Sequence record: ON212266.1
Length of the DNA stretch: 64,000 nucleotides
Strand: one strand, 5' to 3'
DNA from: Enterobacter phage fGh-Ecl02
Part shown: positions 8,766 to 52,299 of the stretch, piece by piece
How positions within the stretch are numbered: the first letter of the stretch is position 1
How the letters are laid out: each line of letters begins with the position of its first letter
Made by a program: the position numbers and the translations under genes
Notes under the pieces: model-generated
Databases searched by the model: none
The model's input: only the letters and a program-made list of their open reading frames with translations
What the model was told of the DNA's origin: nothing

Positions 8766-8967
8766 ATTTTGGTTCCTTGAATATTTTGTAACCAGCAGCG
8801 CCGATAGACATCACCGCGCCAATACAGTACATCACAGTCACGTTCAACTTCTCTGAGGTTGTTAAGTCCAGAGGGGTGAAATGATAGGCTAGGGCAGTAC
8901 ACATTGAAACGGCTGCCATAACCAGACCAATGAACAACAGATAATTAGACAACCGTTTCATGATCAC
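8764..8967 (-). CDS. small two-TM membrane protein 67 aa
   Basis: Hydrophobic segments 'LLFIGLVMAAVSMCTALAY' and 'VMYCIGAVMSIGAAGY'. Confidence 0.4.
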   Translation of the reverse strand: MIMKRLSNYLLFIGLVMAAVSMCTALAYHFTPLDLTTSEKLNVTVMYCIGAVMSIGAAGYKIFKEPK

Positions 8968-27743: not shown

Positions 27744-27787
27744 CTAAATACCCCTAGATGAAACGAACACATTTAGGGGTATTTGAA
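27744..27787 (+). promoter_or_regulatory. late promoter CTAAATAcccc + hairpin cassette
   Basis: ctaaataccccta...taggggtattt inverted repeat ending 3 nt before ATG 27788. Confidence 0.55.
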
Positions 27788-30784
27788 ATGGCTAATAAAC
27801 CAACACAGCCTGTTTTCCCTCTCGGTCTGGCGGCTGAAGAGCAGTCTACTTTGGCTGGTGTCCTCAACACGGGTACGATTGAGCATGGACCAGATGCCGT
27901 CCTGACTTTACCCGAGGGTAATGCCAGCGCAGGGCTCCCGTCTTCCGTTCGCTACAATGCCGACTCCGACGAATTCGAAGGTTATTACGAAAAGGGTGGT
28001 TGGTTGCCGCTGGGTGGCGGTGGTATCCGCTGGGAAGCCCTTCCGCATGCCTCTACGGCAACGCTCACTGAAGGGCGAGGCTATCTGGTAGACAACTCCA
28101 CAGGCGTCTCTACGGTGGTGTTCCCTTCCCCTACGCGCATTGGCGATTCTGTTACAGTCTGTGACTTGTATGGAAAGTTCTCCCTGTATCCTCTGACCAT
28201 CGATCCAAACGGACGCCCAATGTACGGCTCTGTAGAGCCTATGACTCTCTCCACAGATAGTGTATCTGCGACCTTTACCTGGTCTGGAGACGCGCGTGGT
28301 TGGATTGTGACTGCTGGTGTCGGTCTTGGCCAGGGGCACGTTTACAGTCGTACCATCTTCACTGAGACAGTTGCATCAGACACAGCTCAGGTAACTCTCA
28401 CCACACAGCCGTCCATTGTTGATGTGTATGTTGACGGGAAGCGCCTGCTGGAGTCAAAGTATTCCCTCAATGGTTACAATGTCGACTTCAGTCCATCAAT
28501 CCCATCAGGTTCCGAGCTGCAGGTCATCCAATATGTCCCGATCCAGTTGGGCGATGGCTCCGGTGGTTCCGGCGGCGGTACGGTTATCACTTGGATATAC
28601 AATAGCGGATCAGCTGCGGGCGGTGAAACTGAGATCGAGTTGGACGTGGATGCCGAAGATGTTTCTGAGATCTTTATCGATGGATCCCGCCAGCAGAAAG
28701 GCCTGGGCTTCACTTATGACTCCGTTACGAAGATCATCACGCTGGCCGACGAACTCGAAGCTGGTGATGAAGTTGTTGTCGTCATCAATGGCGACCCAAC
28801 ACTGTACAATCAGATCGACCGTACACCAAACGAAGTGGCGCGTTCCGTGAACGTGCCGAATTCTCAGGTTATTTTGTCGTCCGATACCATCACCAAACTG
28901 GACGGAAAGACGGTTATCTATGATGTCGTTGCACAGAAGATCTGGGGTCTGCCTTCTGGTATCCCAACAGGCGCGTCCATCGTATCTGTGAGCGGAAGCA
29001 CCCTGACATATGCGCCTGGAGGTGTTGTTGTTAGTTTGTTGCCTGTATCAAATGAATACACTGATGTACTACGCTCTGATTTAGCCGCGCAAGACGGAGA
29101 TAAATTACTCGGGGAGGCATTGACCGTAACCGCGCTGAGGAACATAGAGCCGTCATTTGATAAACAGCGCATAACACTGCGCGAGTACAGTTCCGGCACA
29201 CGATACGGTGGCGGGCAGTTACGAGCAGTGCTCGACGGTAGCTCTTACACCGACAACGGCGTTACTGTATTCAAGACTCCTGGGGGAGCGGCATGGATTC
29301 GTATTAATGCTGACACTGTAAATCCGTTAATGGCAGGTGCAGTACCGGACGGCGTTACGCCATGTTCCTCTGCCATTAACGCTGCATTCGCAGCAGCTAA
29401 ACGAATTAGTTTCCCTGATGGTGATTACCTGCTGGACGCAACAATCACGGCGCATGAAGCCCGCCGTATTGACTTTGGCGCGGCAAGGCTGATTCAGGGT
29501 ACTACATTGTCGAACTATATTTTCGCTATCCGTGGTTCGAATACACAGGCGCGTGGCGGTAATATCGTTGGTACAGGTATCAGGGCTGGAGCAAGCAGTG
29601 TAGTGTCTGCTGTGTTAGTTGCTGATACCTCCCATAGCTCTGTTATAGGAATGACCGTCAGAAAGGTGCCTGGCTCAGGCATTCAGATGATCAATTGCAC
29701 TCGTTGCAAGATTCAGGATTGCATATCTGAAAATAACTGGGGTATGGGGCTTGAAGACCGTTACGGAACATTCAATGAAGTTATCAATTCAATCAGCAAT
29801 TCCAACGGATACCTGAGTGATACAGAGATAAACGCAACAGGCCGTGGTTGCATTATCTGGAAGAGCACCGGCACAATCTTCAAAGGAAACCAGACATTCG
29901 GCAACAGCGAATATGGTATTCGCGTTTACTCTCAGAGCGGTGATGATGCTCCGACAAGATACATTCACATTATTGACCACATTGCTGGTGATAATCAGAA
30001 GATAGATATCTATGTATACAACGATTCTGGTAATTTGCTTGGCATCGAGTTGACAAACTGCCATGTACACCGATGGAATCAATCTTTCAGCGGTAGTCCT
30101 ATGGTCGCTCTTCAGGGTCAAAGATGCCACTTTAATGGCGGGAGCCTGACAAAATATGGTGATATTTATGACTCACGAGCTATTCAGTGTAGTAATGGCG
30201 ATAATATTATTGTTGAAAATGTGAGTATTAACAACGTTACTCATGCGTTCGGTAACTCTGCGAATAACACTATTTTCAGAAACTGCGCAACATACTCTTC
30301 GACGATAACTGACGCGTCCGGCGGCTCGATAGGTGTTGCTAAGTACGAGGGTATCGATGCTGTTCATGCAGGTACTGGCACCAGTGATTATGCAATTACG
30401 GTTACTGCTGCTTGCGCTATTACCAACGTCACTTTCCAGGGCTTCGCACGTAATATCTCGTGGAATAACCAGAGCTTAACCATTAGAGACTGCCGCAGCT
30501 TTAATACAACCGGTGAGGCAATTCGCATGTACGGCGATGGTGTAGGTGCACTGCAAATGTCTGGTAACAGGTGGGACGTTGCGACTGTTCCTGCATGGCT
30601 TGGTAGCTTGGTGAAACAAGGTAGTGCACTACCGGTTCTATATGATACCGCAGCACCAACCACATTGACCTGGCCTCGTGGTGCAAAATGCATTAACAGT
30701 TCACCAGCTGTAGGTAGTCCCAAAGAGTGGATATGTACTGTAGCAGGAACCCCAGGTACATGGGTATCTGGTGGTAATTTGTAA
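27788..30784 (+). CDS. tailspike protein A (gp10-like N-terminal domains + right-handed beta-helix/pectate-lyase-like C-terminus) about 998 aa
   Basis: The N-terminal segment is homologous to the N-terminus of tailspike C ('ARSVNVPNSQVILSSDTITKLDGKTVIYD' versus 'ARSANVRDSEVILSTDTTQPLNGKKIIFD'). The C-terminus has repetitive N/G/S/T-rich beta-helix-like sequence. Confidence 0.75.
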   Translation: MANKPTQPVFPLGLAAEEQSTLAGVLNTGTIEHGPDAVLTLPEGNASAGLPSSVRYNADSDEFEGYYEKGGWLPLGGGGIRWEALPHASTATLTEGRGYLVDNSTGVSTVVFPSPTRIGDSVTVCDLYGKFSLYPLTIDPNGRPMYGSVEPMTLSTDSVSATFTWSGDARGWIVTAGVGLGQGHVYSRTIFTETVASDTAQVTLTTQPSIVDVYVDGKRLLESKYSLNGYNVDFSPSIPSGSELQVIQYVPIQLGDGSGGSGGGTVITWIYNSGSAAGGETEIELDVDAEDVSEIFIDGSRQQKGLGFTYDSVTKIITLADELEAGDEVVVVINGDPTLYNQIDRTPNEVARSVNVPNSQVILSSDTITKLDGKTVIYDVVAQKIWGLPSGIPTGASIVSVSGSTLTYAPGGVVVSLLPVSNEYTDVLRSDLAAQDGDKLLGEALTVTALRNIEPSFDKQRITLREYSSGTRYGGGQLRAVLDGSSYTDNGVTVFKTPGGAAWIRINADTVNPLMAGAVPDGVTPCSSAINAAFAAAKRISFPDGDYLLDATITAHEARRIDFGAARLIQGTTLSNYIFAIRGSNTQARGGNIVGTGIRAGASSVVSAVLVADTSHSSVIGMTVRKVPGSGIQMINCTRCKIQDCISENNWGMGLEDRYGTFNEVINSISNSNGYLSDTEINATGRGCIIWKSTGTIFKGNQTFGNSEYGIRVYSQSGDDAPTRYIHIIDHIAGDNQKIDIYVYNDSGNLLGIELTNCHVHRWNQSFSGSPMVALQGQRCHFNGGSLTKYGDIYDSRAIQCSNGDNIIVENVSINNVTHAFGNSANNTIFRNCATYSSTITDASGGSIGVAKYEGIDAVHAGTGTSDYAITVTAACAITNVTFQGFARNISWNNQSLTIRDCRSFNTTGEAIRMYGDGVGALQMSGNRWDVATVPAWLGSLVKQGSALPVLYDTAAPTTLTWPRGAKCINSSPAVGSPKEWICTVAGTPGTWVSGGNL

Positions 30785-30818
30785 CACTATGAAGAGAGTG
30801 TTATAAGGCTCCTTGATC

Positions 30819-30858
30819 TCACTAAATACCCCATATTGGCAAATCCTCTATGGGGTAT
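30819..30858 (+). repeat. 40-nt promoter-hairpin cassette, copy 1 (tcactaaataccccatattggcaaatcctctatggggtat)
   Basis: Identical to 32999-33038. Contains CTAAATAcccc and the inverted repeat ataccccata/tatggggtat. Confidence 0.85.
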
Positions 30859-30862
30859 TATC

Positions 30863-32965
30863 ATGAATCCGCAATTCAATCAGCCGAAAGGTTCAACAGC
30901 CAAAGAAATCAACAAAAACCCGCGTGAATTGTGGCGGCGGGCTTTGTCGGATTTAGGCCTTAATTTGGTTGACGGTAGTTTTGAAGATGGTGCTACTGTG
31001 GCGTCTGCAACTGACGCCGTGTGGCATGTCAATGGTGCCCAGTGTTACACCTGGGGTGGGTCTTTACCCAAGACTGTAGACAAAAACTCAACACCGCAAT
31101 CAACTGGTGGGATATCTGGAGAAGCCTGGAAGAAATACGATGAAACTTCTCAGGTTACGACACCAGGATACTATGGCGGAACTTGTTTCCCTACGGAAAA
31201 TAATCTCTCCTTGGCCGTCGGGGATATTATCCCGTCGGGAGTAATGTTCGTCAGAATTGATGGCAATCTGATGATGATGAGTTCTTCTCTGACGGAACCC
31301 GTGACTGTCACCAGTTTTGATCAGACCACGATTAATGGTGTGTATGAGTTGTACCCAGTATCATTCTTTAACGAAGTGATCACGGGTTGGAAGATCGCCC
31401 AGAATGACGCACAGCTTGCCCGTTTGTTACCAAAGGCTGGTAATATTTACATTGGGTATTCTCCCGTGAAAGTTGAAGGGATCTTCACGATTCAGGGAGA
31501 CATTCAGCTTAAACCGCTTCTGCCAAAAGTAACTGTTGATTCCCGTCAGTTTTGGCTAAGGTCACCACGGACTTGGAATGATACAAACCAGGAGTTTGAC
31601 TACACTGCCTACGATATACGCATCGTCGGTAATTTCTTGTTTGATTTTTACCGTCAGGATGCGTCATTTGACCCTGGTGTTGGTTTGGCTATGCAATCCG
31701 CTGGCACGCTTGAGCTTTCAGGGTGTGAATTACAAGGTGCGTGGAACAGTAACGTAACAATGGATTATGGTCGCTGGGCGTTGGCTGACAATCTGTATTC
31801 ACACGATTGTGGACGTGGGAAAATCCAACAGCCGGACGGCAGCAATCGTCAAGGCATGGCAATTATTGTAGGTAACGCTACAGAAGCACATATCCATCAT
31901 ATCCGTACTAGAACCACATGGGCATCTTCTGTATTTGTGGATTCAGCTCGCCCAGCTCGCACACTTAACGTAATGATTCATGACATCAGCATTAATGGTT
32001 CTGGCGGTAATGGTCTTCGTCTTCAGTCTGATGACTTGGTAACTGGTGTTGGCGGTGGTGATGGTACTGCAATTACACGTGTAAACATCAGTAATGTAAC
32101 AATCAAGAACTGCGAATCACACGGCATCCGTGCAAACTTTACAAACGGAAGCGTAACTGGGGTTTATATTGAGGCTTGTAACGCTGGCATTGCCATTGAA
32201 GGTTCAAGCGATGTGGCGTATGACAACATCATAATCAAGAATTGCTCACAGCCAATCCTCTGCCGATATTATCCGGTAGTCTGCACACGCCTGCGATTTA
32301 GTAATATCTTAATATCAGGCCACACAGATTGGGCCGTGTTCTTTTTGCGTAAGGATGGCTCCTCTCACACGGTAAATCTAGGGGATATTGAATTCGATGG
32401 GTTGACAATCCACTGCACACAACCAGGTTCTAAAGCTGTTATGATTAACTGCGGGGCGAACTCAACAGCGACTTCAGACATCACTATGAAGAACGTGCGT
32501 ATTGTTGGTGCATCCCCTGATACAGACGGAACAGCACTATGTCAGATTCATAATGCACGGCATATTGAAGTAGATAACTGGAACATTCGTGGTATTAATG
32601 GTAAGCCTAGTTCTTATCTGTATGCGCAGGCATCACAGAGCCTGAACATAAACCGCCTTGTGGGTGTTCAGCCATTCGGTACGGTTGAGCGTCCTATTGA
32701 ATGTGTTGGTGTGGCTGGTCATGTGAACATTGTCAACTGCTCGGTGCCTGTTACAACGAACGGAATACTTTATACAACTGTACCAGCTCACAGGTACGAG
32801 CAGGGGAACCAGTTCTTCAACAGTGAACGGCCGCAAGCGTATCCGTTTACAAACGCAGGTACTTTACGCGGCGGCGATGTGAATACGTTAACAACGCCCC
32901 AACTGGCAAACATAGTGGCTACGCTGATTAACGATATTAGCCTGGGCAAATTCGTAATCAGATAA
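30863..32965 (+). CDS. tailspike protein B about 700 aa
   Basis: N-terminus 'YTWGGSLPKTVDKNSTPQSTGGISGEAWKKY' is a conserved fibre/tailspike head-binding motif. Beta-helix repeats 'NGSGGNGLRLQSDD'. Confidence 0.75.
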   Translation: MNPQFNQPKGSTAKEINKNPRELWRRALSDLGLNLVDGSFEDGATVASATDAVWHVNGAQCYTWGGSLPKTVDKNSTPQSTGGISGEAWKKYDETSQVTTPGYYGGTCFPTENNLSLAVGDIIPSGVMFVRIDGNLMMMSSSLTEPVTVTSFDQTTINGVYELYPVSFFNEVITGWKIAQNDAQLARLLPKAGNIYIGYSPVKVEGIFTIQGDIQLKPLLPKVTVDSRQFWLRSPRTWNDTNQEFDYTAYDIRIVGNFLFDFYRQDASFDPGVGLAMQSAGTLELSGCELQGAWNSNVTMDYGRWALADNLYSHDCGRGKIQQPDGSNRQGMAIIVGNATEAHIHHIRTRTTWASSVFVDSARPARTLNVMIHDISINGSGGNGLRLQSDDLVTGVGGGDGTAITRVNISNVTIKNCESHGIRANFTNGSVTGVYIEACNAGIAIEGSSDVAYDNIIIKNCSQPILCRYYPVVCTRLRFSNILISGHTDWAVFFLRKDGSSHTVNLGDIEFDGLTIHCTQPGSKAVMINCGANSTATSDITMKNVRIVGASPDTDGTALCQIHNARHIEVDNWNIRGINGKPSSYLYAQASQSLNINRLVGVQPFGTVERPIECVGVAGHVNIVNCSVPVTTNGILYTTVPAHRYEQGNQFFNSERPQAYPFTNAGTLRGGDVNTLTTPQLANIVATLINDISLGKFVIR

Positions 32966-32998
32966 AACAAGTGGGTAGTCCTGCGACTCCTTATCCAT

Positions 32999-33038
32999 TC
33001 ACTAAATACCCCATATTGGCAAATCCTCTATGGGGTAT
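32999..33038 (+). repeat. 40-nt promoter-hairpin cassette, copy 2
   Basis: Identical 40-mer to 30819-30858. Confidence 0.85.
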
Positions 33039-33044
33039 CTTCAA

Positions 33045-35708
33045 ATGACCAGAAACGTCGAGAGCATCTTTGGAGCGGTCGTAACAGCTCCGCACCAGAT
33101 TCCATACACTTATACCGCAACGGGTGGAGAGACGTTTATCTCCCTCCCTTTCTACCCTGTCACTGGTATAGTCACAATCAACGGTGGTATGCAAGTTCCG
33201 TTAGACAACTTTGAAATCGATGGAAATACGTTGAATCTCGGGTGCGCATTATCCAAAGGTGACGTTGTGTTCTGTCTGTTTGATAAGATTCTGTCTCCAG
33301 AAGATTATAAAACCGGGATTCGAATCTATAAGTTTCAGGCTATAGGAGGTGAAACCGAGTTCACTCCTGATTACACATCTTATGGAGTCCAATCTCTTTA
33401 TATCGGTGGTGAGTACAAAACACCCGAAATTGAATATTCCTATGACAGCACGACAGGGAAAGTGTCTTTACAAACTGCGCTGACTGCAGGCGTTTGGGTA
33501 GTCGCTGAAATGTCTGTTAAACAACCGAATATCAGTCCGTTGTTTGACCGAAGTATTCAAGAAATCGCCCGTTCAGCTAATGTAAGAGATTCTGAAGTAA
33601 TCCTCAGCACGGATACTACTCAGCCCCTTAATGGTAAAAAGATTATCTTCGATGCAGCTTCTCAGAAAATTTATGGCCTGCCTTCATTACCGACCAATGT
33701 CTATATTAGTTCTGTGTCTAATGGTCAGTTAACCTACAGCCCGGGTAACATTACCGTAGATTTGATGGAAGTTCCTAATTCTGGTGCTAGTCTCAGAGAA
33801 GACCTGAGTAAGCCTGATGGTAGCAAGCTCATTGGTTCATGCCCCAATATTGCAGTACTGCGAACAATTGAGCCTACCTATGCTGAACAACGCATTTACG
33901 TAGAAGCACATACTGAAGGTATGTCTGCAACCAATGCAGGTGATTTGGGTGGTGGTTACTTTGTATATAAACCATCTGTTACATCAGCAGATGACAATGG
34001 TATGACTATTGTTACTGCATCCGGCAAGCGTTGGGTACGTGATTTACGTGGTAGCACCGAAGTTACCCCATCTATGTTTGGTGCGTGGATGGATGCTCCT
34101 TATATTGATGGGAGCACTATTCAGGGTACACCTTACCCTAAAGCACCGAGTATGGGGGCTGCTGACCTGTCCGGTGTGCATAATGATGGGGATGCTTTGC
34201 AGGCAACTTACTCGTATGCTGTAGCTAATGGGTTGAATATTAAAATTACCCAGCCAATGTATATTGGTGATACACAGATAGATATCAGTGATGCACGTTG
34301 GACAGGTAAATCTCTATCCATTACGGGTCTTGGTCAGAGACAAAGTATTATTTATACATCAGGTAAGGGTGGATTCATCTCTACCAGATGGGGGCATAAT
34401 ATTACTATTGGTCGCCTCTCTTTCCGTAATGCTGATTCTGATTACGTAGGTAGCCCTCTTGTTATTAGTTCATTCGACTTAAGTAATGGCATAGGTGGTG
34501 GTGGTAAGACATTTAATGTGCATGACGTGGACTTTTACCACTATAAGTTCGCTTTGCCTATGGCTTGCTTTGTCAGTGTTATGACCAATTTGTATGCATA
34601 TGACTGTACCTATGGTTTTGGTATCAATGGAAGCACTAGTACGGATATGTCATCTATTTGGGCACACCATTGTGACATTGGCTTTTTATGGGGAGCTGCC
34701 ATTAATCGTACTACATACGAGCCAGCCAGTAATGGAATGCCTGTTATGTATGTTGCTACCAGCAATATTGCAGCAGATGGTTGTATTTTACCTCATAAAT
34801 TTTATGGAGATATTCGTAGCCTTTCCTTCTCTGGCTTTGGTATTGAAGGGATAAATGGTCCAGTGGCATTAGACTTCTCGCAATTAGCTTCTCCTGCTGC
34901 ACAAACAACAATCGTATTCAGAGATGTTTCTTGTTGGATTCAGTCTAAAATGAATACTGGTGTAACTCATTTTATTGAGTTGCCTGCTAATGAGTACCAG
35001 GCTGGTAGGATTATTTTTGACAGTGGTTACGTTAACTCTGACTATGCTATCAAATTGATGGAGAATACCACTTCTCCAAGTAACCAGTATGTTGGGCGTA
35101 GTGTTACATTAAATAGTAATTTTGAATTTTTAAAAGTTAGCGATGGTTCCTACACAATATCTACATATAACCGTGGCAACCTTTACCGGGGCAGGGTATA
35201 TGGAGAAGATATTGTACAAGGTCGTAACTCGTACACGGGTACTACTTTGTCAGCAATCCATTCTAATAGTAATTCCTTCTTCAGAAGTGTTGACCACAAG
35301 GAAGCTACTGTACTGGTTCCATGGAACAGGGCTTTAGATATATTCCTTTGTGCTGTAGGGGAAGAGACTAAAATTCCGGATGGTTGCTTCGTTGCAGGAC
35401 GTGCAGATATCATTCCAGTTAACAAAAATGGTTTGGCTGGTACTGAATCAGGGGGCAGTATTCTGTTTGGGCTATCCGGTAGCACACAGGAAAATGTAGC
35501 CTCTGGTGCAGTTTGGTCCAATATGATTGCTGGTGATAAATCCCTTTCCGGGGTAACTGTAACCAAACTGGTACGTGATGGTAAAACATTTGTCAGAATT
35601 GCATTACCTACAGCAAGCCTAGTAAATGCAATCGTTCATCTGTCTGTATCCTACTGTGGTTTTGCACATTACTACGACAAGCGTTGGGAAGTAAAACCAT
35701 TAAGCTAA
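33045..35708 (+). CDS. tailspike protein C about 887 aa
   Basis: N-terminal anchor homologous to tailspike A. AT-richer beta-helix C-terminus. Confidence 0.75.
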   Translation: MTRNVESIFGAVVTAPHQIPYTYTATGGETFISLPFYPVTGIVTINGGMQVPLDNFEIDGNTLNLGCALSKGDVVFCLFDKILSPEDYKTGIRIYKFQAIGGETEFTPDYTSYGVQSLYIGGEYKTPEIEYSYDSTTGKVSLQTALTAGVWVVAEMSVKQPNISPLFDRSIQEIARSANVRDSEVILSTDTTQPLNGKKIIFDAASQKIYGLPSLPTNVYISSVSNGQLTYSPGNITVDLMEVPNSGASLREDLSKPDGSKLIGSCPNIAVLRTIEPTYAEQRIYVEAHTEGMSATNAGDLGGGYFVYKPSVTSADDNGMTIVTASGKRWVRDLRGSTEVTPSMFGAWMDAPYIDGSTIQGTPYPKAPSMGAADLSGVHNDGDALQATYSYAVANGLNIKITQPMYIGDTQIDISDARWTGKSLSITGLGQRQSIIYTSGKGGFISTRWGHNITIGRLSFRNADSDYVGSPLVISSFDLSNGIGGGGKTFNVHDVDFYHYKFALPMACFVSVMTNLYAYDCTYGFGINGSTSTDMSSIWAHHCDIGFLWGAAINRTTYEPASNGMPVMYVATSNIAADGCILPHKFYGDIRSLSFSGFGIEGINGPVALDFSQLASPAAQTTIVFRDVSCWIQSKMNTGVTHFIELPANEYQAGRIIFDSGYVNSDYAIKLMENTTSPSNQYVGRSVTLNSNFEFLKVSDGSYTISTYNRGNLYRGRVYGEDIVQGRNSYTGTTLSAIHSNSNSFFRSVDHKEATVLVPWNRALDIFLCAVGEETKIPDGCFVAGRADIIPVNKNGLAGTESGGSILFGLSGSTQENVASGAVWSNMIAGDKSLSGVTVTKLVRDGKTFVRIALPTASLVNAIVHLSVSYCGFAHYYDKRWEVKPLS

Positions 35709-35710
35709 TC

Positions 35711-35742
35711 AACTACTCCCCACCCCCATAAGGGGGTGGTTT
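35711..35742 (+). terminator. rho-independent terminator after tailspike C
   Basis: ccaccccc-ataa-gggggtgg followed by ttt. Confidence 0.5.
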
Positions 35743-35765
35743 ACTAGAAAAACAAAGAGGTTGTT

Positions 35766-38399
35766 ATGAACGAGATGTTCTCACAAGGTGGTAAAGGCTC
35801 CACTGGTATTCTTACCAACAAGCAAGCCATTGCCCGTAAGTTTGGTGTTAAGCAGAATGAAGTAGTCTACTTTTCTGTAGGTGTAGACTTGGGTGGTTAC
35901 AAAGTCATTTATGATAAGTCTACCCAGCGTGCTTACTCATTACCTGTACTTCCGGTAGGAACCACTGCAGTAAGTCTTAATGAACAGGCAGAACTTATTC
36001 ATTCTAATGGGTCTATTGACTTAGGTCAGTTAGCTGTCGAACGTGGTGAGTATGTAACCCTCCCTTACTCATTTACTACTGGAGCCACGGTTAATGTAAA
36101 GAATGAGTTATTAACTCATGAAAGTAATCAATATTACTGGGATGGTTCTCTTCCTAAAGAAGTTGCCCCCAATTCTACCCCAGCTACTGCTGGTGGATTA
36201 GGTGCTACCAAATGGTCCCAAAAATCAAGCCAGGATAATAAGACTCCGGTTTCATTTACTCAGTTTGGTGCAGTAGGTGATGGTGTAACTAACGATGTGC
36301 AGGCTGTTGCTGCTGCATTCGCTTATGCTTATGCCAATAATTTACCGGTAGAGCAACACAGTGGTACTTTCCTGCTAGATGGTGGAACTTATCTTGATAT
36401 CAAAAACCTTCAGACAGATTTAACAGGTTGTGTATTGAAACCCTCTGCCTCGTGGACTGGGCAGATAGTCATTACACAGGGAGATGCACCTATTACACAC
36501 GGTGCAGGTTCTGCTGTAGTTAATGCTATGAATACTAATAATAATGCAAGTCGAGCAGTTGGTAGCACTGTATTTAATGGATTAGCTTCTAATACTGACC
36601 TGAATGGTTGTTATATTAAAGTATCTACTTCTCAGCCGATGTTTACTTTCAGGGATACTATCTATACCCGTAAGGATCTTAACCGTGTATACAACAGAGG
36701 TAATATTGAAAACCCTCTTCGTTACGGTATTGGTAATAACGTTACTGAGGTTTTTGCACTTAAGATTCGCAAGGATGTACAGACAGTCAAAGGTCTTACT
36801 ATTGATGAGAGCCTGTCTCGTAACTACAGGATAGTCTTTATTAATAATGCAACCCGTGTGCGTTTATTGAATACCTCATTCATTAATGCACCAATTACGC
36901 AGGACTACAGTACTTCACGTATTGAAGTATCTAACTCATATGATGTAATTATTGATGGGTTATTTACACCTGCTGTTGTGGACTCCTTCACATCTTCCGG
37001 TGACATCTATTCATACACTCTGGGTTTTGGTGAGAGCATGAATATACAGGTTAAGAATGCCACAGGTAACGGAGAAGGTTGGGGAGCAACTGGTTCTAAT
37101 GACTGTGCAAACATTTCCTTTACTAACTGTGACCTTAGTCGCATAGATTTCCATAGACCATTTCAGGGATTCCTTCGGGTTAACAAATGCAATGTTGGTC
37201 GGTATGGGGTAGTTGCATCTGGCATTGGGGATTTGATTATAGACGATGTGGTATTCAACGGCTCTACCGATACACTTGGTTCCATCATAGCGACTCGTCC
37301 TGACGCTGGGGGGTTCTTTGATGGTGACCTCTATATGACCAATGTGACAATCGCAGGTCGCCGTAGTGCACCTCTCTCTACACTAATTTTTGGTTACTCT
37401 GATGAAGGTCAGGGGCCGGTATCAGGTTCCCCAATTACCAGTACTTTGTTTAACAACATTGTTATTCGAGATTTGAAGTTGGGGGATGGTTTCTATGAAC
37501 AGGCATTCTCTACATTGATTTCCTGTTCTCGTGATTCCCAGTTACTATTCCCTCGTTCAATAACAATAGATGGATACAGTTTAGGTACTTTACCTAAGTC
37601 TTCTGGTATTGGCCTCAATATAGACTTCTCTCGTTTCAAGGAACTCTATACTGGAATGACTAACAGTGAACATCCGGTTACTGGAAGAAAGACTACAGAT
37701 ATTGTACTGAATAATATTCAGGTTCCTTACCTGTCTATTACCTCAGCATCGTATCGTCACAACCCTCATGTTACTGCTCGTAATGTTCGCCACATACTAG
37801 GAGATGAAGCACCTACCTTGTTTGAGACGAACCAACGTGGTAGTTACTACTTTGAGGATTGCTCCTTAGAACAAATCAAACTGTACTCTGGTAATAATCC
37901 AAATGGTCTGGTTAGTGTACGTATGCGTGGTGGTAAACTGCATCAGCCTGTTGCTGCTACTATGCCAATATTTGGTGAAGTAACCCATGACATTGTTCTG
38001 GATGGGGTAAATCTGATATGTAACTTTACTGGGCAGGATACTACCTACCCAATAACCCGGGCTATTCTGGCAAGAGCACTGGTTCAGGATTGTATTTACT
38101 GGGACGTATCTGGAACTCGCTTAAATAGCCTGCCTATTAATAACCAGACCGGTGTATCTGTTACATCCACCGTATCGGTACGTGCTGGACAAAAGATGAC
38201 TGTATCTTCTGGTTACTCTGCCAGCAGCAACTATACAAGGAATCATATTACTGCTTTGTGGGAAACGGACTGTAAGCAGATTGTTCCTTTAGATACTGGT
38301 ACTAATATTGTTATTAAATACTCAGTTACTGGTAATAGGGTTACTCAAATGGTGTTAACTGCACCAGCATCTAATGATATTCGTGAGTTAGCCATCTAA
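35766..38399 (+). CDS. tailspike protein D 877 aa
   Basis: 'YYWDGSLPKEVAPNSTPATAGGLGATKW' shares its motif with tailspike B. Pectate-lyase-like repeats. RBS aaagagg. Confidence 0.75.
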   Translation: MNEMFSQGGKGSTGILTNKQAIARKFGVKQNEVVYFSVGVDLGGYKVIYDKSTQRAYSLPVLPVGTTAVSLNEQAELIHSNGSIDLGQLAVERGEYVTLPYSFTTGATVNVKNELLTHESNQYYWDGSLPKEVAPNSTPATAGGLGATKWSQKSSQDNKTPVSFTQFGAVGDGVTNDVQAVAAAFAYAYANNLPVEQHSGTFLLDGGTYLDIKNLQTDLTGCVLKPSASWTGQIVITQGDAPITHGAGSAVVNAMNTNNNASRAVGSTVFNGLASNTDLNGCYIKVSTSQPMFTFRDTIYTRKDLNRVYNRGNIENPLRYGIGNNVTEVFALKIRKDVQTVKGLTIDESLSRNYRIVFINNATRVRLLNTSFINAPITQDYSTSRIEVSNSYDVIIDGLFTPAVVDSFTSSGDIYSYTLGFGESMNIQVKNATGNGEGWGATGSNDCANISFTNCDLSRIDFHRPFQGFLRVNKCNVGRYGVVASGIGDLIIDDVVFNGSTDTLGSIIATRPDAGGFFDGDLYMTNVTIAGRRSAPLSTLIFGYSDEGQGPVSGSPITSTLFNNIVIRDLKLGDGFYEQAFSTLISCSRDSQLLFPRSITIDGYSLGTLPKSSGIGLNIDFSRFKELYTGMTNSEHPVTGRKTTDIVLNNIQVPYLSITSASYRHNPHVTARNVRHILGDEAPTLFETNQRGSYYFEDCSLEQIKLYSGNNPNGLVSVRMRGGKLHQPVAATMPIFGEVTHDIVLDGVNLICNFTGQDTTYPITRAILARALVQDCIYWDVSGTRLNSLPINNQTGVSVTSTVSVRAGQKMTVSSGYSASSNYTRNHITALWETDCKQIVPLDTGTNIVIKYSVTGNRVTQMVLTAPASNDIRELAI

Positions 38400-45974: not shown

Positions 45975-46670
45975 ATGGCCAGACCATTTGAAAATTACTT
46001 CTACCATGATTCATTGATGAAATACATCAATCTGTTTGCCACCATTATGTCTGATCTGAAGGTGAACACAGAGCGTGGTCTTATGGAAGTCCCATTACAC
46101 ATGGCCATCGGGAGACGCAATGACCTCAACAGGAACGTGCCGTCCAACATGCTTCCATTTGCGACTTTCTCTTTTGGTCAGTTTGAGATCAACAAACAGG
46201 TGACGAAGACGTACCACAATCGACAATCGACACCAACAGCAGGGGCGAAGCAGCGAATCCCCCTGATTATCGATTTTGAGTACAATATCCGAACCAAGAA
46301 ATTGGTTGAGATGTTACAGGTGCTAGAGCAGGTTTATTCGGTATTCACCCCCTCTCTAGACTGTGGTATCAAGGACAACGATACACTACAGCAAGACCAG
46401 AAGATCAAGATCCAACTGGTCAGCCACCAGATGTCCGATAACTGGGAAGGGGATGCTTCTGATTCACCACACGTCGACTGCTCCTTCATGTTCCAGCTGA
46501 GCGGCTTCATCTACGGGTATGACTATTGGGTGGACAACGGTGGAGGCGGGGATCCTAACGGGATCAAAGAGATAATTATCGAAATGTCTAATGATTTGAA
46601 AACACCGTGGACGGAACTGCCGGAGTGGTTCCGTGTTGACAAAGACGGTGTACATCATCCTGGAGATTGA
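45975..46670 (+). CDS. tail sheath stabiliser/completion protein (T4 gp15-like) 231 aa
   Basis: Gene order and size. Confidence 0.55.
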   Translation: MARPFENYFYHDSLMKYINLFATIMSDLKVNTERGLMEVPLHMAIGRRNDLNRNVPSNMLPFATFSFGQFEINKQVTKTYHNRQSTPTAGAKQRIPLIIDFEYNIRTKKLVEMLQVLEQVYSVFTPSLDCGIKDNDTLQQDQKIKIQLVSHQMSDNWEGDASDSPHVDCSFMFQLSGFIYGYDYWVDNGGGGDPNGIKEIIIEMSNDLKTPWTELPEWFRVDKDGVHHPGD

Positions 46671-47380
46671 TTATGAGTGCTATGTCAGAACGCCTATTAT
46701 CCACCCTCAGCGCTATCCAAGCGCGAGATGAGGTCGCTCAAGAAGTCATGGAGAAGACCTCGCCTGTGGCTGGAAAGGATTACGATCCGGATACAGGCGT
46801 GTGGTTGGGTGAAAAGCCTGTGGGGTATGAGCCTGTGGTGTTTCCTCCTTCATTGGACCCAGAAGAGCTGAAGCCCAAGGAATCTAAGGTTCCAGACTTC
46901 GAAGACACTGATGCCACCACCGACTACAAACGCATCCGTGACACAACTTATGCCATGCAGGAAGCCACGATGTTCATGATGGGACAGGCAGCCAAACTTG
47001 CGACGACGACTGAAGCACCCCGTGCTTTCACAGTCTTCAAAGAGTTGGGTGAACTCATGCGCGGTCTGAACAAAGACCTGATGGAGAACCAGAAAACCAT
47101 CAAGGCGGTCACGGGCGACAGAGAGCCGCCTCCTGGAGACGAAACAACCGTCGAGGTCACCACGTCCCCTGATGGCACAACCACGGTCAACGTCGGTAAA
47201 CAGGCCAGGTCTTCCCGTGATCTACTGAAGACCATCGAAGACGCCCGTAAACGTGCTGAAGAACGTGCTGCAGCGAAATCTGCGTCCAAAGGACCTGATC
47301 CCGAAGAAGATGTAATCGACGTTCAGGCGGAGCCGCAGCCGAAGGAAGAAGGTGAAGACAATGGCGTATCAGAAGCGTGA
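46667..47380 (+). CDS. terminase small subunit (T4 gp16-like) about 235 aa
   Basis: Immediately upstream of and overlapping the terminase large subunit gene. Acidic/charged C-terminus. Confidence 0.55.
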   Translation: MIMSAMSERLLSTLSAIQARDEVAQEVMEKTSPVAGKDYDPDTGVWLGEKPVGYEPVVFPPSLDPEELKPKESKVPDFEDTDATTDYKRIRDTTYAMQEATMFMMGQAAKLATTTEAPRAFTVFKELGELMRGLNKDLMENQKTIKAVTGDREPPPGDETTVEVTTSPDGTTTVNVGKQARSSRDLLKTIEDARKRAEERAAAKSASKGPDPEEDVIDVQAEPQPKEEGEDNGVSEA

Positions 47381-49571
47381 TGTAGAATACGCCCCGCTCA
47401 AGACGGGGTTTCGGACAGAAGACGTCAGACTGCGTATGGACCAAACGTTCATGCGCAAGCCGTCTGTGCGCGCTCCTCGCGTGGAGTTGATGCTAACAGA
47501 TGAGCAGGAATCGGAGTTCGTCGAGTGTGCGATGGACGCCCATTACTTCGCCGCCAACTACTACAAGATAACGACCATCGATAAAGGCTTCATCCTCTTT
47601 GATATGCACGATTATCAGAAGCAGTTGTTCCATGACTTCCAGGACTATCGATTCAATGTGGTCGTCCAGGCTCGTCAGTCTGGGAAATGTGTAAAAGGTG
47701 ACACGCTTGTCACAGTTTACGATACTCTCAGTCAAGAGGAATTGATCCTGACTATAGGGGAGCTTCACAGTCGCTTCGAGGACGTCAACCACGCTGTGCC
47801 ACTGAATACCATTGGCAACCATGACAAGTTCGTGGACAGCCGCTTCGGCAAACGTTATTTTGTACAATCCGATAGTGGCTGGGTTCCGGTTATCGCAGCA
47901 CATAAGACGAAGAAATATGCGGAATTCGTTATTGTCACCGTTACCGGGCGGCGAATTAACGTGGCCGATGAACATATGTTCTTCACTCCGGAAATGAAGG
48001 AGATATTTGCCAAAGACCTGAATGCTGGGTCATACATCATGACGTCAGAAGGTCCAGAAGAAATTCGTGAGATTTGGCAGACTGGTGAAATGCATCACAT
48101 GTATGACCTACAGGTGAAATCTAGTGATCAGCGCTACTACACCAACGGCTTCCTCAGCCACAACACGACAGTCGTGGCAGCATTCCTTCTCTGGTATGCC
48201 ATGTTCCACTCTGACAAAGAGATAGCAGTACTGGCGAACAAAGAGAAGCAGGCGATTGAAATTCTAGATCGTATTCGCAAAGCATATCAAGATCTGCCAT
48301 TCTTCCTCCAACAGGGTTGTGAGAAGTTCGGTTCCACGCTGATCGAGTTCGAAAACGGATCAAAGATCTATGCTTACGCGACGTCTTCGGACTCCATCCG
48401 TGGTCGATCCGTATCGCTACTGTATGTGGATGAAGTGGCGTTCATCGAAAACGACTTTGAGTTCTGGGAGTCTACATTCCCGGCGATTGCATCTGCGGAT
48501 ACTTCACGTTGTATCCTGACCAGTACACCGAAAGGCCAGCGTGGATTGTTCTACGACATCGTCACCAAGGCGAATCCAGAACATCCACAATACAATGACT
48601 TCAAACTCACAGAGGTCCCATGGTATCGTGTTCCAACGTACACCAAAGATCCAAACTGGGAAACCAAGCAGAGAGCGAAGCTGGGTGATGCACGTTTCGA
48701 TCAGGAATTCGGTATCAAGTTCCGTGGTTCTGTGGGATCACTGATACCTTCCAAGTGTCTGGACAAGATGACATCGAAGCTGTATCAGGAGCCGAACGAG
48801 TTCACCAAGATTTACCACGACTACGATCCGAAGCGCATTTATATGGGTATCGCAGATACAGGCAAGGGCGTCGAGGGGGATTATTCTGTGCTGACCATTA
48901 TCGACATCACAGACTATCCTCACAAGATCGCAGCCAAGTATCGAAACAACACGATACCTCCAATGATGTATGCGTACACAATCGCCGATATGGGCGAGAA
49001 GTATGGAACGTGCCCGATGCTAGTCGAGACCAACAACGACGTGGGTGGTCAGGTAATCACAATTCTATATCAGGAAATTGAATATCCCGAGATCATATTC
49101 ACTACAACAGATACCAAGGGTACAGGCAAGAGAATCGGTGGTCGCCGCCCTGAGCCTGGTATCAATACCAACAAGAAGGTGCGCACAAACGGCTGTGCCA
49201 ACCTGAAAGCCCTGATTGAACGTGAAATGCTGGTGATAGATGACCAGGACACGATAGATGAACTCAGTACATTCGTATGGACTGGAACAAGGTATGAAGC
49301 CGATGATGGTTGTCATGATGACTGTGTAATGCCCCTCGTGTTGTATGCATGGGCGGTGAAACAAGAATGGTTTAGTGATCTCACCAATTCAAATATCTCT
49401 GTGGACATGAGAGGACGGTTGTCTGCGATGGAAGAATCTCAGATGCTACCATTTGGGGGTATGATGTCGACGCCAGATCCTCACTCTGTGGAGAACATCC
49501 CAGGGTTCGGTGGAATTCAGGTTTATGATGAACGCTCTGGTATGTCTATGGAAGAATGGCTGAGACGGTGA
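47361..49571 (+). CDS. terminase large subunit (T4 gp17-like) interrupted by an in-frame mini-intein
   Basis: Walker A is split: 'VVVQARQSGK | intein | TTVVAAFLLWYAM'. 736 aa from ATG 47361; 577 aa after intein removal. Confidence 0.85.
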   Translation: MAYQKRDVEYAPLKTGFRTEDVRLRMDQTFMRKPSVRAPRVELMLTDEQESEFVECAMDAHYFAANYYKITTIDKGFILFDMHDYQKQLFHDFQDYRFNVVVQARQSGKCVKGDTLVTVYDTLSQEELILTIGELHSRFEDVNHAVPLNTIGNHDKFVDSRFGKRYFVQSDSGWVPVIAAHKTKKYAEFVIVTVTGRRINVADEHMFFTPEMKEIFAKDLNAGSYIMTSEGPEEIREIWQTGEMHHMYDLQVKSSDQRYYTNGFLSHNTTVVAAFLLWYAMFHSDKEIAVLANKEKQAIEILDRIRKAYQDLPFFLQQGCEKFGSTLIEFENGSKIYAYATSSDSIRGRSVSLLYVDEVAFIENDFEFWESTFPAIASADTSRCILTSTPKGQRGLFYDIVTKANPEHPQYNDFKLTEVPWYRVPTYTKDPNWETKQRAKLGDARFDQEFGIKFRGSVGSLIPSKCLDKMTSKLYQEPNEFTKIYHDYDPKRIYMGIADTGKGVEGDYSVLTIIDITDYPHKIAAKYRNNTIPPMMYAYTIADMGEKYGTCPMLVETNNDVGGQVITILYQEIEYPEIIFTTTDTKGTGKRIGGRRPEPGINTNKKVRTNGCANLKALIEREMLVIDDQDTIDELSTFVWTGTRYEADDGCHDDCVMPLVLYAWAVKQEWFSDLTNSNISVDMRGRLSAMEESQMLPFGGMMSTPDPHSVENIPGFGGIQVYDERSGMSMEEWLRR
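47688..48164 (+). mobile_element. mini-intein (159 aa, Hint domain only, no homing-endonuclease domain) in the terminase P-loop
   Basis: Starts with Cys (tgt 47688-47690) and ends ...GFLSHN (aac 48162-48164). The +1 residue is Thr. Excision restores RQSGKTTVVAAF. Confidence 0.75.
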
Positions 49572-49575
49572 TCAC

Positions 49576-49590
49576 TAAATATCTTTCAAA
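49576..49590 (+). promoter_or_regulatory. late-promoter motif CTAAATAtc upstream of the tail sheath gene (coordinates +/-1)
   Basis: tcactaaatatctttcaaattgag. Confidence 0.4.
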
Positions 49591-49623
49591 TTGAGCGAAA
49601 CTCTACAGAGAAGGAATAAGATT

Positions 49624-51519
49624 ATGGCAACTCAAAGCTTCAGCGTTGCGCCGTCCGTACAGTGGACTGAGCGTGATGCCACGCTTCAGACGTCTCCATC
49701 CGTTGTTGTTCAGGGTGCGACTGTCGGCAAATTCCAATGGGGTGAAGCAGAACTCCCTGTGTTGGTCACTGGTGGCGAAACTGGTCTGGTGAAGAAATTC
49801 TTCAAGCCAAACGATGCAACTGCCACCGACTTCTTGGTGATTGCTGACTTCCTGTCTTACAGCTCTGTTGCATGGGTGACCCGTGTGGTCGGTCCGGCGG
49901 CACGCAACGCTGTAACCAAAGGTCAGACTGCAATCCTTATCCGCAACAAACTAGACTTCGAAACTGCGTCCCCATCTGCGTCTATTACCTGGACAGGCCG
50001 CTATGCTGGCTCTCTGGGTAACGACATTGCTGTGAACATCTGTGATGCTGCGCTGTTCCCGACCTGGGAATTCCGTAACAACTTCGCATATGCTCCGCAG
50101 GATGGCGAGTACCATATCGCCATCGTTGACAAAGTAGGTCGCATTACCGACTCTTCTGGCGCTGTTAGTCAGGTTGATCGTATCTCTGTATCCGGTACTG
50201 CCACCGCTGCTGGTTCCATCTCTGTTGCTGGTGAAGCCGTGGCGTACACTGACGCTGACACCCCGGCGACTCTGGCGACAAAGATCGGAACTGCGCTGAC
50301 GTCTCTGTCTGACGTGTATTCTTCTGTTGTCGTGAAGTCCAACACCGTCACCGTCACTCACAAAGCAATCGGTCCTCAGGCTGCGACTGCGATTGTTCCA
50401 GACGCGAATGGCCTGACTGCTACCGCTGCCGTCACCACTGTTGGTGCTTCCGGTACGATCATCGAGAAGTATGAACTGGTGCAGACCACTCAGGGTTCTA
50501 AGAAATCTGATGGATCCAATGCGTACTTCAAAGACGTGATCAACGGCACCTCAAATTGGGTGTACACCTTCGCCACTACCCTGGCTGCTGGTGTCATTGA
50601 ACTCGAAGGTGGTGTAGACGATTACACTGGGAACCGTGTTGCGGCTATCCAGGCACTGAACAACGCCGAAGCGTATGATGCCAAGCCAGTGTTCGGTTTC
50701 TGTGAAGAACTGATTGAGCAGCAGGCACTGATCGACCTGTCCACTGAGCGTAAAGACACAGTGTCCTTCGTGTCTCCTCTTCGCGATGCGGTCGTCGGAA
50801 ACCGTGGCCGTGAGATGGATGATGTTGTGGCCTGGCGTGAAAGCCTTGTTCGCGACTCCTCCTACTTCTTCATGGATGACAACTGGGCGTATGTGTACGA
50901 CAAGTACAACGACAAAATGCGTTGGATTCCGGCTTGTGGCGGCACCGCAGGTGTTTGGGCGCGAAGCATTGAAATCGCGGGTATCTACAAATCTCCGGCG
51001 TTCCACAACCGTGGTAAATACAACAACTATAATCGAATGGCGTGGTCTGCGTCTTCTGATGAGCGTGCTGTGCTATATCGCAACCAGATCAACAGCATCG
51101 TCACCTTCTCCAACGAAGGCATCGTGTTGTACGGCGACAAGACTGGCCTGACCCGCCCATCTGCGTTCGACCGCATCAACGTTCGTGGTCTGTTCATCAT
51201 GGCAGAACAGAACATCGCAGCCATCGCCAAATACTACCTTGGTGAGAACAACGATGCATTCACTCGTGGGTTGTTCAGCAACGCTGTCCGCCCATATATC
51301 CGCCAGTTGGCCAACATGGGCGCGATCTATGACGGGATGGTGAAGTGTGATGAGGACAACAACACCGCTGATGTTATCGCAGCCAACACCATGGTCGCGG
51401 GTATCTGGCTGAAACCAGAATACAGCATTAACTGGATATTTTTAGATTTCGCCGCCGTCCGCCCAGACATGGAGTTCTCCGAGATCGAATCCGGTGGTGG
51501 TATCGTTGCAGCCTCCTAA
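49624..51519 (+). CDS. tail sheath protein (T4 gp18-like) about 631 aa
   Basis: Gene order and size. Start MATQSF with RBS gaaggaataag. Confidence 0.8.
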   Translation: MATQSFSVAPSVQWTERDATLQTSPSVVVQGATVGKFQWGEAELPVLVTGGETGLVKKFFKPNDATATDFLVIADFLSYSSVAWVTRVVGPAARNAVTKGQTAILIRNKLDFETASPSASITWTGRYAGSLGNDIAVNICDAALFPTWEFRNNFAYAPQDGEYHIAIVDKVGRITDSSGAVSQVDRISVSGTATAAGSISVAGEAVAYTDADTPATLATKIGTALTSLSDVYSSVVVKSNTVTVTHKAIGPQAATAIVPDANGLTATAAVTTVGASGTIIEKYELVQTTQGSKKSDGSNAYFKDVINGTSNWVYTFATTLAAGVIELEGGVDDYTGNRVAAIQALNNAEAYDAKPVFGFCEELIEQQALIDLSTERKDTVSFVSPLRDAVVGNRGREMDDVVAWRESLVRDSSYFFMDDNWAYVYDKYNDKMRWIPACGGTAGVWARSIEIAGIYKSPAFHNRGKYNNYNRMAWSASSDERAVLYRNQINSIVTFSNEGIVLYGDKTGLTRPSAFDRINVRGLFIMAEQNIAAIAKYYLGENNDAFTRGLFSNAVRPYIRQLANMGAIYDGMVKCDEDNNTADVIAANTMVAGIWLKPEYSINWIFLDFAAVRPDMEFSEIESGGGIVAAS

Positions 51520-51600: not shown

Positions 51601-52299
51601 ATGATCGGAAGTGTTTACAAAATTACAAATCTAGTCAATCAGAAAGCCCATATCGGTATCACCACAAGAGACCCAAGCCATAGGTGGTGGGAACATTGTA
51701 ACAGCGCTCGAAATGGTTCCGACTACGGTATCCATCAAGCTATTCGCAAGCACGGTGAAGAATCATTCTCGTTCCAAGTGATTGCCCAGACCAAGTCCAT
51801 AAAAGATCTTAAAGAATTAGAGATCATCCTGATCAAGCAGCATGACACCCACATGTCAACTCAGAAAGGGTACAACAAAACTTGGGGCGGTGATGGTGCA
51901 ACATTCACTGGCAAGACCGGCGCTATTGATGCATCGACCGGAGAGCGTATCGGCCTCGTAGACTGTGATGACCCTAGATGGTCGACAGGAGAGATAATAC
52001 ACTGCAAGGTCGGGGTCAAGCGTTCTTTCTCAAAGAGCCTGTCTGAATTCGCCAAAGCAAGAACCGGATCCAAGAACTCCAATGCCAAGCGATTCAAATT
52101 GGTATCTCCATCCGGCGAAGAATACGAAATCCACGGGAATTGTCGCGAATACGTGGAGAGGTTGGGACTTAAATATTCAGCACTCTATGATTACATCGAC
52201 AAGGGTATTCCAGTTCCACCACCGTCTGTGTATCATAGGAAAACTGCGACCACAGAGCGTTTGAATACGACGGGTTGGCAGCTAATTAGAATTGTGTAA
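51601..52299 (+). CDS. freestanding GIY-YIG homing endonuclease (Seg/I-TevI-like) 232 aa
   Basis: 'SVYKITNLVNQKAHIGITT...RWWEH...YNKTWGG' GIY-YIG motifs. Inserted between the sheath and tube genes. Confidence 0.75.
   Translation: MIGSVYKITNLVNQKAHIGITTRDPSHRWWEHCNSARNGSDYGIHQAIRKHGEESFSFQVIAQTKSIKDLKELEIILIKQHDTHMSTQKGYNKTWGGDGATFTGKTGAIDASTGERIGLVDCDDPRWSTGEIIHCKVGVKRSFSKSLSEFAKARTGSKNSNAKRFKLVSPSGEEYEIHGNCREYVERLGLKYSALYDYIDKGIPVPPPSVYHRKTATTERLNTTGWQLIRIV

Follow-up and report, generated by a model that had tools for sequence, protein, structure and literature searches.

How does a phage terminase come to have the coding sequence of its ATP-binding loop in two pieces, and what becomes of the segment in between? 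This question is raised by the gene for the large terminase subunit (TerL) in a stretch of 64,000 nucleotides (nt) from Enterobacter phage fGh-Ecl02 (sequence record ON212266.1), referred to here as the window. In this gene an insert encoding 159 amino acids (aa) separates the two halves of the Walker-A P-loop. The answer proposed here, to which we assign a probability of roughly 0.93, is that the P-loop is split by a self-splicing mini-intein, that the unspliced precursor is inactive, and that alleles of the intein are reshuffled among phage lineages by recombination. Judged by its sequence, the DNA belongs to a Vi1-like phage of Agtrevirus type in the Ackermannviridae. A 3-kb region around TerL shares 97% identity with Salmonella phage vB_CECAV_050, 96-97% with eight E. 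coli phages, AV101 among them, and 89% with Shigella phage Ag3.

The insert is formed by 159 stop-free codons in the TerL frame, translated as CVKGDTLVTV...YYTNGFLSHN, and is flanked by ...VVVQARQSGK on one side and by TTVVAAFLLWYAM on the other. The insertion point lies between the Lys and the Thr of the Walker-A motif (RQSGK/TTVV). This position was established by comparison with T4 gp17, since the 577-aa form that lacks the insert aligns to the gp17 structures 3ezk and 3cpe (E 1e-72) without a gap across the junction (vvqaRQSGKTTVVAaFL against nlsRQLGKTTVVAiFL; RQLGKTTVVAIFL). Without the 159 residues, the Terminase_6N score of the protein was also higher (80 instead of 63 bits), and the match was continuous. 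In the initial annotation the open reading frame (ORF) had been read as ...VVVQARQSGK-C[157 aa]HN followed by Thr, and excision had been proposed to recreate the P-loop RQSGKTTV. The translation agrees exactly with the former, and the gap-free alignment to T4 gp17 bears out the latter. The host protein matches Pfam Terminase_6N and Terminase_6C (PF03237, PF17289) and the PHROG terminase large subunit (E 4e-56). It combines an N-terminal ATPase with Walker A, a C-terminal RNase H-like nuclease and the gene order gp16-gp17-gp18, with the small terminase subunit (TerS) and the tail sheath as neighbours, as is characteristic of T4-type large terminases.

The insert alone was compared with intein profiles. 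It scored 36.2 bits (E 7e-9) with PF14890 Intein_splicing and 25.9 bits with TIGR01445 intein_Nterm, both above the curated cut-offs of 35.8 and 24.5 bits, respectively, and chance can be dismissed as an explanation for the insert. All of its sequence matches in the PDB are inteins, namely Cat (6dsl), VidaL (6vgv), PabCDC21-1 (6rpp), gp41-1 (6qaz) and Mxe GyrA. An AlphaFold2 model built on 19 alleles reached a mean predicted local distance difference test score (pLDDT) of 95.1 and a predicted template modelling score (pTM) of 0.88, and shows one compact, nearly all-beta domain with two short helices. When this model was searched against the PDB with Foldseek, the best 50 matches were all inteins or BIL domains of the HINT fold, with TM values of up to 0.8, and VidaL ranked first (E 2e-10). 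A BIL domain was considered and rejected. Such domains are found in variable parts of non-conserved and often secreted proteins, commonly lack a +1 nucleophile and bring about cleavage instead of splicing. The insert, in contrast, interrupts an essential ATPase at its most conserved motif and is followed by an invariant Thr at position +1, BIL structures ranked 39th or lower in the Foldseek search, and the PT-HINT score of 16.9 bits is below its cut-off of 27.7. No endonuclease domain was detected in the insert, for which Intein_splicing and PT-HINT were the only Pfam matches at E<=1, and blocks B and F are only about 40 residues apart; at 159 aa it also falls within the size range of mini-inteins (roughly 130-200 aa). 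Together with the predicted HINT fold, this supports the initial view of a Hint-only mini-intein lacking a LAGLIDADG or HNH domain. Its statement that the polymerase and the other large genes carry no such insertion also held, as no Hint or intein domain was found in 10 other large ORFs of the window, including the family B DNA polymerase (12057-15053, minus strand). On the profiles and the predicted structure, the insert is a real class-1-type mini-intein of the HINT superfamily.

The residues expected to carry out splicing are conserved throughout the family. In an alignment of 27 alleles of 150-183 aa, which occupy the same Lys-Thr site and share as little as about 32% identity, the invariant positions comprise Cys1 of block A (CVKGDT), A93-D94-x-H96 of block B, M138-x-D140 of block F, and L156-S157-H158-N159 of block G together with the +1 Thr. 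The +1 Thr that follows Asn159 is the Thr of the GKT P-loop. The catalytic residues of blocks A, B, F and G are thus all present, and no homologues were found that keep the 159 residues as an integral domain. Each of the computational checks suggested in the initial annotation supported its reading.

A search with the insert alone in a large protein database returned two matches and revealed a GenBank entry named 'intein'. The full precursor was therefore used instead, and retrieved 765 TerL relatives from a collection of 5.8 billion proteins. Five of these relatives (P0015-P0019, 575-581 aa) lack the insert. They share 73-84% identity with the precursor in the best local alignment, which runs across the C-extein, and are nearer to the TerL of the window than many intein-bearing relatives are. 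In a MAFFT alignment of the exteins with these and further uninterrupted homologues (P0028, P0030, P0031, P0036 and P0043), a comparison suggested earlier as a check, the gap extends exactly from the Cys to the Asn, and P0015-P0019 keep RQSGK/TTVVA. The intein-free relatives stem from uncultured assemblies with Ackermannviridae-like contigs. P0016 is located on contigs of 118-119 kb and P0015 on a contig of 4.8 kb, and both share the gene order of the window (DUF4815 protein, gp13, gp14, gp15, gp16, gp17, gp18, gp19, gp20). At the DNA level, the empty site of an intein-free relative reads ...CGTCAGTCCGGTAAG followed directly by ACGACTGTGGTG...; STML-13-1 and the P0015 empty site were left out of the DNA-level analysis. 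Among cultured phages the insert is nearly universal. Records matching the TerL region and records matching the intein in tblastn are near-equal in number by host genus (Salmonella 164, Klebsiella 45, Dickeya 19, Serratia 10, Shigella 6), and for Escherichia 30 records match the TerL region and 29 the intein. Because these counts are almost identical, the intein is essentially fixed in cultured enterobacterial Ackermannviridae.

Several observations weigh against a splicing intein. The C-terminal model TIGR01443 reached only 12-13 bits on the insert, with a cut-off of 15.6; this model is just 24 positions long, and the terminal LSHN of the insert with the adjoining Thr is nonetheless invariant. 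No family for the insert alone was found in PHROGs. The Thr of the textbook block B motif TxxH is replaced by an invariant Ala (ADxH), although His96 is kept. Finally, no experiment showing splicing of any Ackermannviridae TerL intein was found in the searchable literature. The last two points would also suit a degenerate or domesticated HINT domain that has ceased to splice and remains an integral part of the mature terminase, where it could serve regulation or interaction, for example, and the presence of the insert in essentially every cultured enterobacterial Ackermannviridae TerL could be read as the fixation of such a useful domain. This explanation is nevertheless highly improbable. Cys1, the terminal Asn, the +1 Thr and the other catalytic residues are invariant at 32-40% identity, which would be needless without splicing. 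The insert parts a Lys from a Thr that are contiguous in the T4 gp17 structures, and close syntenic relatives function without it. The block B position is occupied by Ala in VidaL and by Ser in Cat according to alignments with the PDB sequences, and these nearest solved relatives are called active inteins in the literature. The block B Ala thus looks like a family trait more than a defect.

For a splicing intein, a pathway can be proposed by analogy with the intein family, from which we infer the chemistry. The 736-aa translation product would be a precursor whose P-loop is physically divided by the 159-aa HINT domain. An N-S acyl shift at Cys1, helped by His96 of block B, would be followed by attack of the +1 Thr hydroxyl on the thioester to form a branched intermediate. 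Asn159 would then cyclise to a succinimide with the help of His158 and block F Asp140, which would free the intein, and an O-N shift would restore a normal peptide bond. The resulting TerL would be 577 aa long and carry an unbroken P-loop (RQSGKTTV), the spliced junction reading ...QSGK-TTVVAAFLLWYAMFHSDK. Because the insert is positioned inside Walker A, the precursor should fail to bind or hydrolyse ATP properly, so that DNA packaging would depend on splicing.

Comparison of the window with the Agtrevirus phage Ag3 and the Kuttervirus phage CBA120 showed that most of the intein differs in origin from its host gene. In windows of 120 nt from gp15 to gp18, the DNA has 92-99% identity to Ag3, compared with about 55-85% to CBA120. 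Within the intein the relation is reversed, with 92-98% identity to CBA120 and 69-78% to Ag3. At sites where CBA120 and Ag3 differ, matches to CBA120 and Ag3 number 107 and 7 in 47640-48089, versus 171 and 862 elsewhere in 45975-51519 (Fisher p 1.4e-64), and the best breakpoints are 47645 and 48089. The patch covers the last 14 or so codons of the N-extein and codons 1-134 of the intein. It starts about 43 nt 5' of the intein, in the DNA coding for the P-loop, and ends 75 nt before the end of the intein. Because of this position of its end the intein itself is chimeric, with residues 1-134 of Kuttervirus type and residues 135-159 of Ag3 type. At the protein level the intein shares about 97-97.5% identity with that of PhaxI, compared to 86% for the exteins. 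An assembly chimera as the source of the patch was rejected, as nine independently sequenced genomes share the TerL region at 96-97%, and PC3, which is among the nine, is recorded with this patch at 95%.

A second, independent swap of intein alleles has occurred within Kuttervirus. Between CBA120 (L002, 3174-5384) and SFP10 (L008, 2222-4432) nucleotide identity is 97.2% in the N-extein and 95.9% in the C-extein but only 72.5% in the intein. The 5' transition is sharp and lies about 40 nt upstream of the intein, and downstream a zone of about 500 nt shows 86-93% identity. The Kuttervirus protein clusters P0005 and P0007 likewise share 98% of their extein residues and 79% of those of the intein. 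At least three intein allele classes occur in Kuttervirus. An intein without an endonuclease has thus been swapped between lineages as a cassette. The mosaic exchange between Agtrevirus and Kuttervirus types is not limited to the intein, since a further short patch in the tail sheath gene (50850-51070) is also CBA120-like, with 20 against 5 informative sites and 98-99% identity to CBA120 versus 88-92% to Ag3.

The cassette exchange is most simply explained by passive homologous recombination that uses the conserved flanks as anchors. The intein would be inherited with the TerL gene, and its alleles would be reshuffled between lineages by crossovers located upstream in the conserved P-loop-coding DNA and, downstream, within the conserved DNA of blocks F and G or past it. 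The alleles exchanged are old and deeply diverged (about 70-80% identity). They have moved repeatedly among phages, in part across genera, whose TerL exteins resemble each other far more or far less than the inteins do, and 5' breakpoints have arisen more than once a short distance upstream of the insertion site. This could mean that the exchange is not passive but driven, either by a free-standing homing endonuclease that acts in trans and cleaves the DNA of the P-loop or intein or its vicinity ('collaborative homing'), or by selection on alleles if splicing tunes packaging. Several GIY-YIG and HNH genes are present in these genomes, and one of the GIY-YIG type lies in the window 3.4 kb downstream of the intein and outside it (Table 1). 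Homologues of this gene are annotated as homing endonuclease or GIY-YIG and were found in about 20 phage records scattered over several genera; Ag3 lacks it at this position. Among the records that carry it, the gene does not obviously track the intein allele, and nothing ties it to the intein. A driven exchange is considered unlikely, and passive recombination is retained as the simplest account. In CBA120, a SegD-like gene follows the sheath gene.

The exchange of alleles also bears on whether the intein might act as a post-translational switch, in which a redox, temperature, DNA or infection-stage cue gates splicing and thereby packaging. A conditional intein of this kind would explain the fixation of a costly insertion, which is near-universal in the family although it lacks an endonuclease that could spread it, and regulatory roles have been proposed for P-loop inteins (PMC4760082, PMC5050341). 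A variable helical segment at residues 23-45 or thereabouts differs among alleles. Between genera, the ratio of nonsynonymous to synonymous substitution rates (dN/dS) is 0.10-0.15 for the intein versus 0.007-0.03 for the exteins. Purifying selection therefore acts on the intein as a whole and not on its catalytic residues alone. It is looser than on the exteins, as expected where a domain must merely fold and splice. No sensor is apparent in the sequence, and Cys1 is the sole invariant Cys, so that a disulfide trap would lack a conserved partner. Fixation is also explained by the difficulty of a precise deletion from an essential motif, and the interchangeability of alleles between genera argues against fine co-adaptation. 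A conditional switch is considered very unlikely.

The start of the gene determines the numbering of the intein. The ORF finder had placed it at a GTG (47352), but the ATG at 47361 is probably the true start, because the GTG falls within a Shine-Dalgarno sequence (AGGTGA) located 5 nt 5' of this ATG and TerL homologues carry an annotated length of 736 aa. The intein therefore extends from Cys110 to Asn268 of the precursor. The lengths of 736 and 577 aa given in the initial annotation stand with this start, whereas its Cys113 and Asn271 had been counted from the GTG and are off by three. The first 20 nt of TerL overlap the 3' end of the gene for the small terminase subunit (46667-47380).

Table 1. 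Coordinates of the TerL gene, its parts and associated features in the window.
Feature	Position	Strand	Details and basis
TerL (gp17-type large terminase) precursor gene, probable start	47361..49571	+	736 aa + stop; Pfam, PHROG, Shine-Dalgarno, homologue lengths
ORF-finder version of the TerL ORF	47352..49571	+	GTG start, 739 aa
N-extein, 109 aa, with the first half of the Walker-A P-loop at its end (...ARQSGK)	47361..47687	+	aligns to T4 gp17 ...SRQLGK; flank identical in intein-free relatives
Predicted class-1-type mini-intein, 159 aa, blocks A/B/F/G, without homing-endonuclease domain	47688..48164	+	translation, profiles, model, alignment
C-extein, 468 aa + stop, starting with +1 Thr (TTVVAAFLL; second half of the P-loop)	48165..49571	+	T4 gp17 alignment
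Kuttervirus (CBA120)-type patch in the Agtrevirus (Ag3)-type gene	47645..48089	+	sliding identity, informative sites
GIY-YIG-type homing endonuclease gene, free-standing, flanked by the genes for tail sheath and tail tube	51601..52299	+	ORF; homologue annotation

AceL-TerL and GOS-TerL reside in terminase genes. Together with Cat-TerL they represent experimentally characterised split TerL inteins of class 1, with Cys1 or Ser1 and a Cys at position +1. These inteins are naturally split, splice in trans and have very short N fragments, whereas the intein of the window is contiguous, is predicted to splice in cis and is followed by Thr. Cat (6dsl, E 0.004) and VidaL (6vgv, E 0.02) are its nearest solved relatives by sequence, and VidaL is the nearest by fold. 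With the Cat/VidaL group it shares only about 19-26% identity, but also the C-terminal motif YYTNG-x-x-SHN.

The existence of a TerL intein in the Vi1-like phage family is already known, and the allele swap between Agtrevirus and Kuttervirus is the additional finding of the present analysis. The genome announcements of Salmonella phages Maynard and Marshall in 2013 described, from InterPro matches, a large terminase interrupted by an intein (PMC3868846, PMC3853055). Mooltan and Klebsiella phage Magnus have likewise been described as carrying the TerL intein (PMC6486243, PMC6763660); the reports of 2013 and 2019 were based on InterPro Hint matches. The GenBank entry 'intein' (YP_008772116, 159 aa) belongs to Maynard and Marshall and shares 78% identity with the intein of the window. 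The Vi1-like/Kuttervirus inteins (Maynard, Marshall, CBA120/PhaxI, Mooltan, Magnus) agree with that of the window in protein, Lys-Thr site, length of 159 aa and blocks. Unlike them, the window harbors a chimeric allele in another genus, as its host gene is of Agtrevirus type with flanks 92-99% identical in nucleotides to Ag3. The position between Lys and Thr of the P-loop has been called a classic intein site (PMC5050341). Kelley et al. (2016), who described the TerL1-a P-loop inteins of mycobacteriophages, mention that TerL inteins splice efficiently and have spread among phages (PMC5050341). Those inteins reside in the Terminase_1 family, in contrast to the Terminase_6/T4 gp17-type host of the window, and were not among the matches of the window intein in the PDB or the large database, which shows no close sequence kinship. 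Novikova et al. (2016) listed 22 Terminase_6 inteins.

Homologous inserts were found by tblastn in phage records of Campylobacter (13) and Vibrio (10), and a TerL intein has been published for Campylobacter phage IBB_35 (IBB_35/CP220 group). Alleles of the Campylobacter/Vibrio group measure 150-183 aa and differ by extra loops at residues ~32-45, and an intron or a GIY-YIG endonuclease additionally breaks up some of their host TerL genes. The Lys-Thr site of the window is shared by metagenomic alleles and by those of Vibrio VP-1 type. The TerL of Vibrio phage VP-1 (P0058, 738 aa), as well as P0052 and P0056, contains a P-loop intein plus a GIY-YIG domain straight after the ATPase domain (residues 506-589) and has no Terminase_6C match, which suggests that these terminase genes are further broken by an endonuclease insertion. 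Two 987-aa TerLs from Joint Genome Institute (JGI) metagenomes (P0060, P0061) harbor inserts of 422 aa at the same Lys-Thr site. Only the C-terminal intein block was recognised in these inserts, and no Pfam endonuclease domain was detected in them at E<=0.01; they could be full-length inteins with an undescribed endonuclease or linker domain. A Kuttervirus-type TerL intein with 96% nucleotide identity to the window was also encountered at 33478-33927 of OR844942.1 ('Enterococcus phage Efm 3-10', 111 kb), which is probably a mislabelled or contaminated record.

Elsewhere in the window, an ORF at 8967-10562 (minus strand) matches 5-hmdU DNA kinase 2 (PF18747, E 4e-156), a Pfam family that takes its name from 5-hydroxymethyl-dU DNA, and points to a thymidine hypermodification pathway. 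Four large ORFs follow each other at 27758-38396 (plus strand), two with a Tail_spike_N domain (TSP1/Gp66) and one with a beta-helix domain. This run looks like a multi-tailspike cluster as described for Ackermannviridae.

The identification of the intein chiefly matters for annotation. In Kuttervirus, Agtrevirus and their relatives, phages in wide use for biocontrol and therapy, the mature TerL is predicted to comprise 577 and not 736 aa. It is thus the spliced form that structural and biochemical studies of the packaging motor need to employ. As a short, well-folded mini-intein with Cys1 and Thr at position +1, and as kin to Cat and VidaL, the intein is also a potential reagent for protein engineering. 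TerL phylogenies of Ackermannviridae should omit the intein, since it does not share the history of the exteins. The allele swap represents a clear natural case of intein exchange without an endonuclease and thus bears on how mini-inteins persist.

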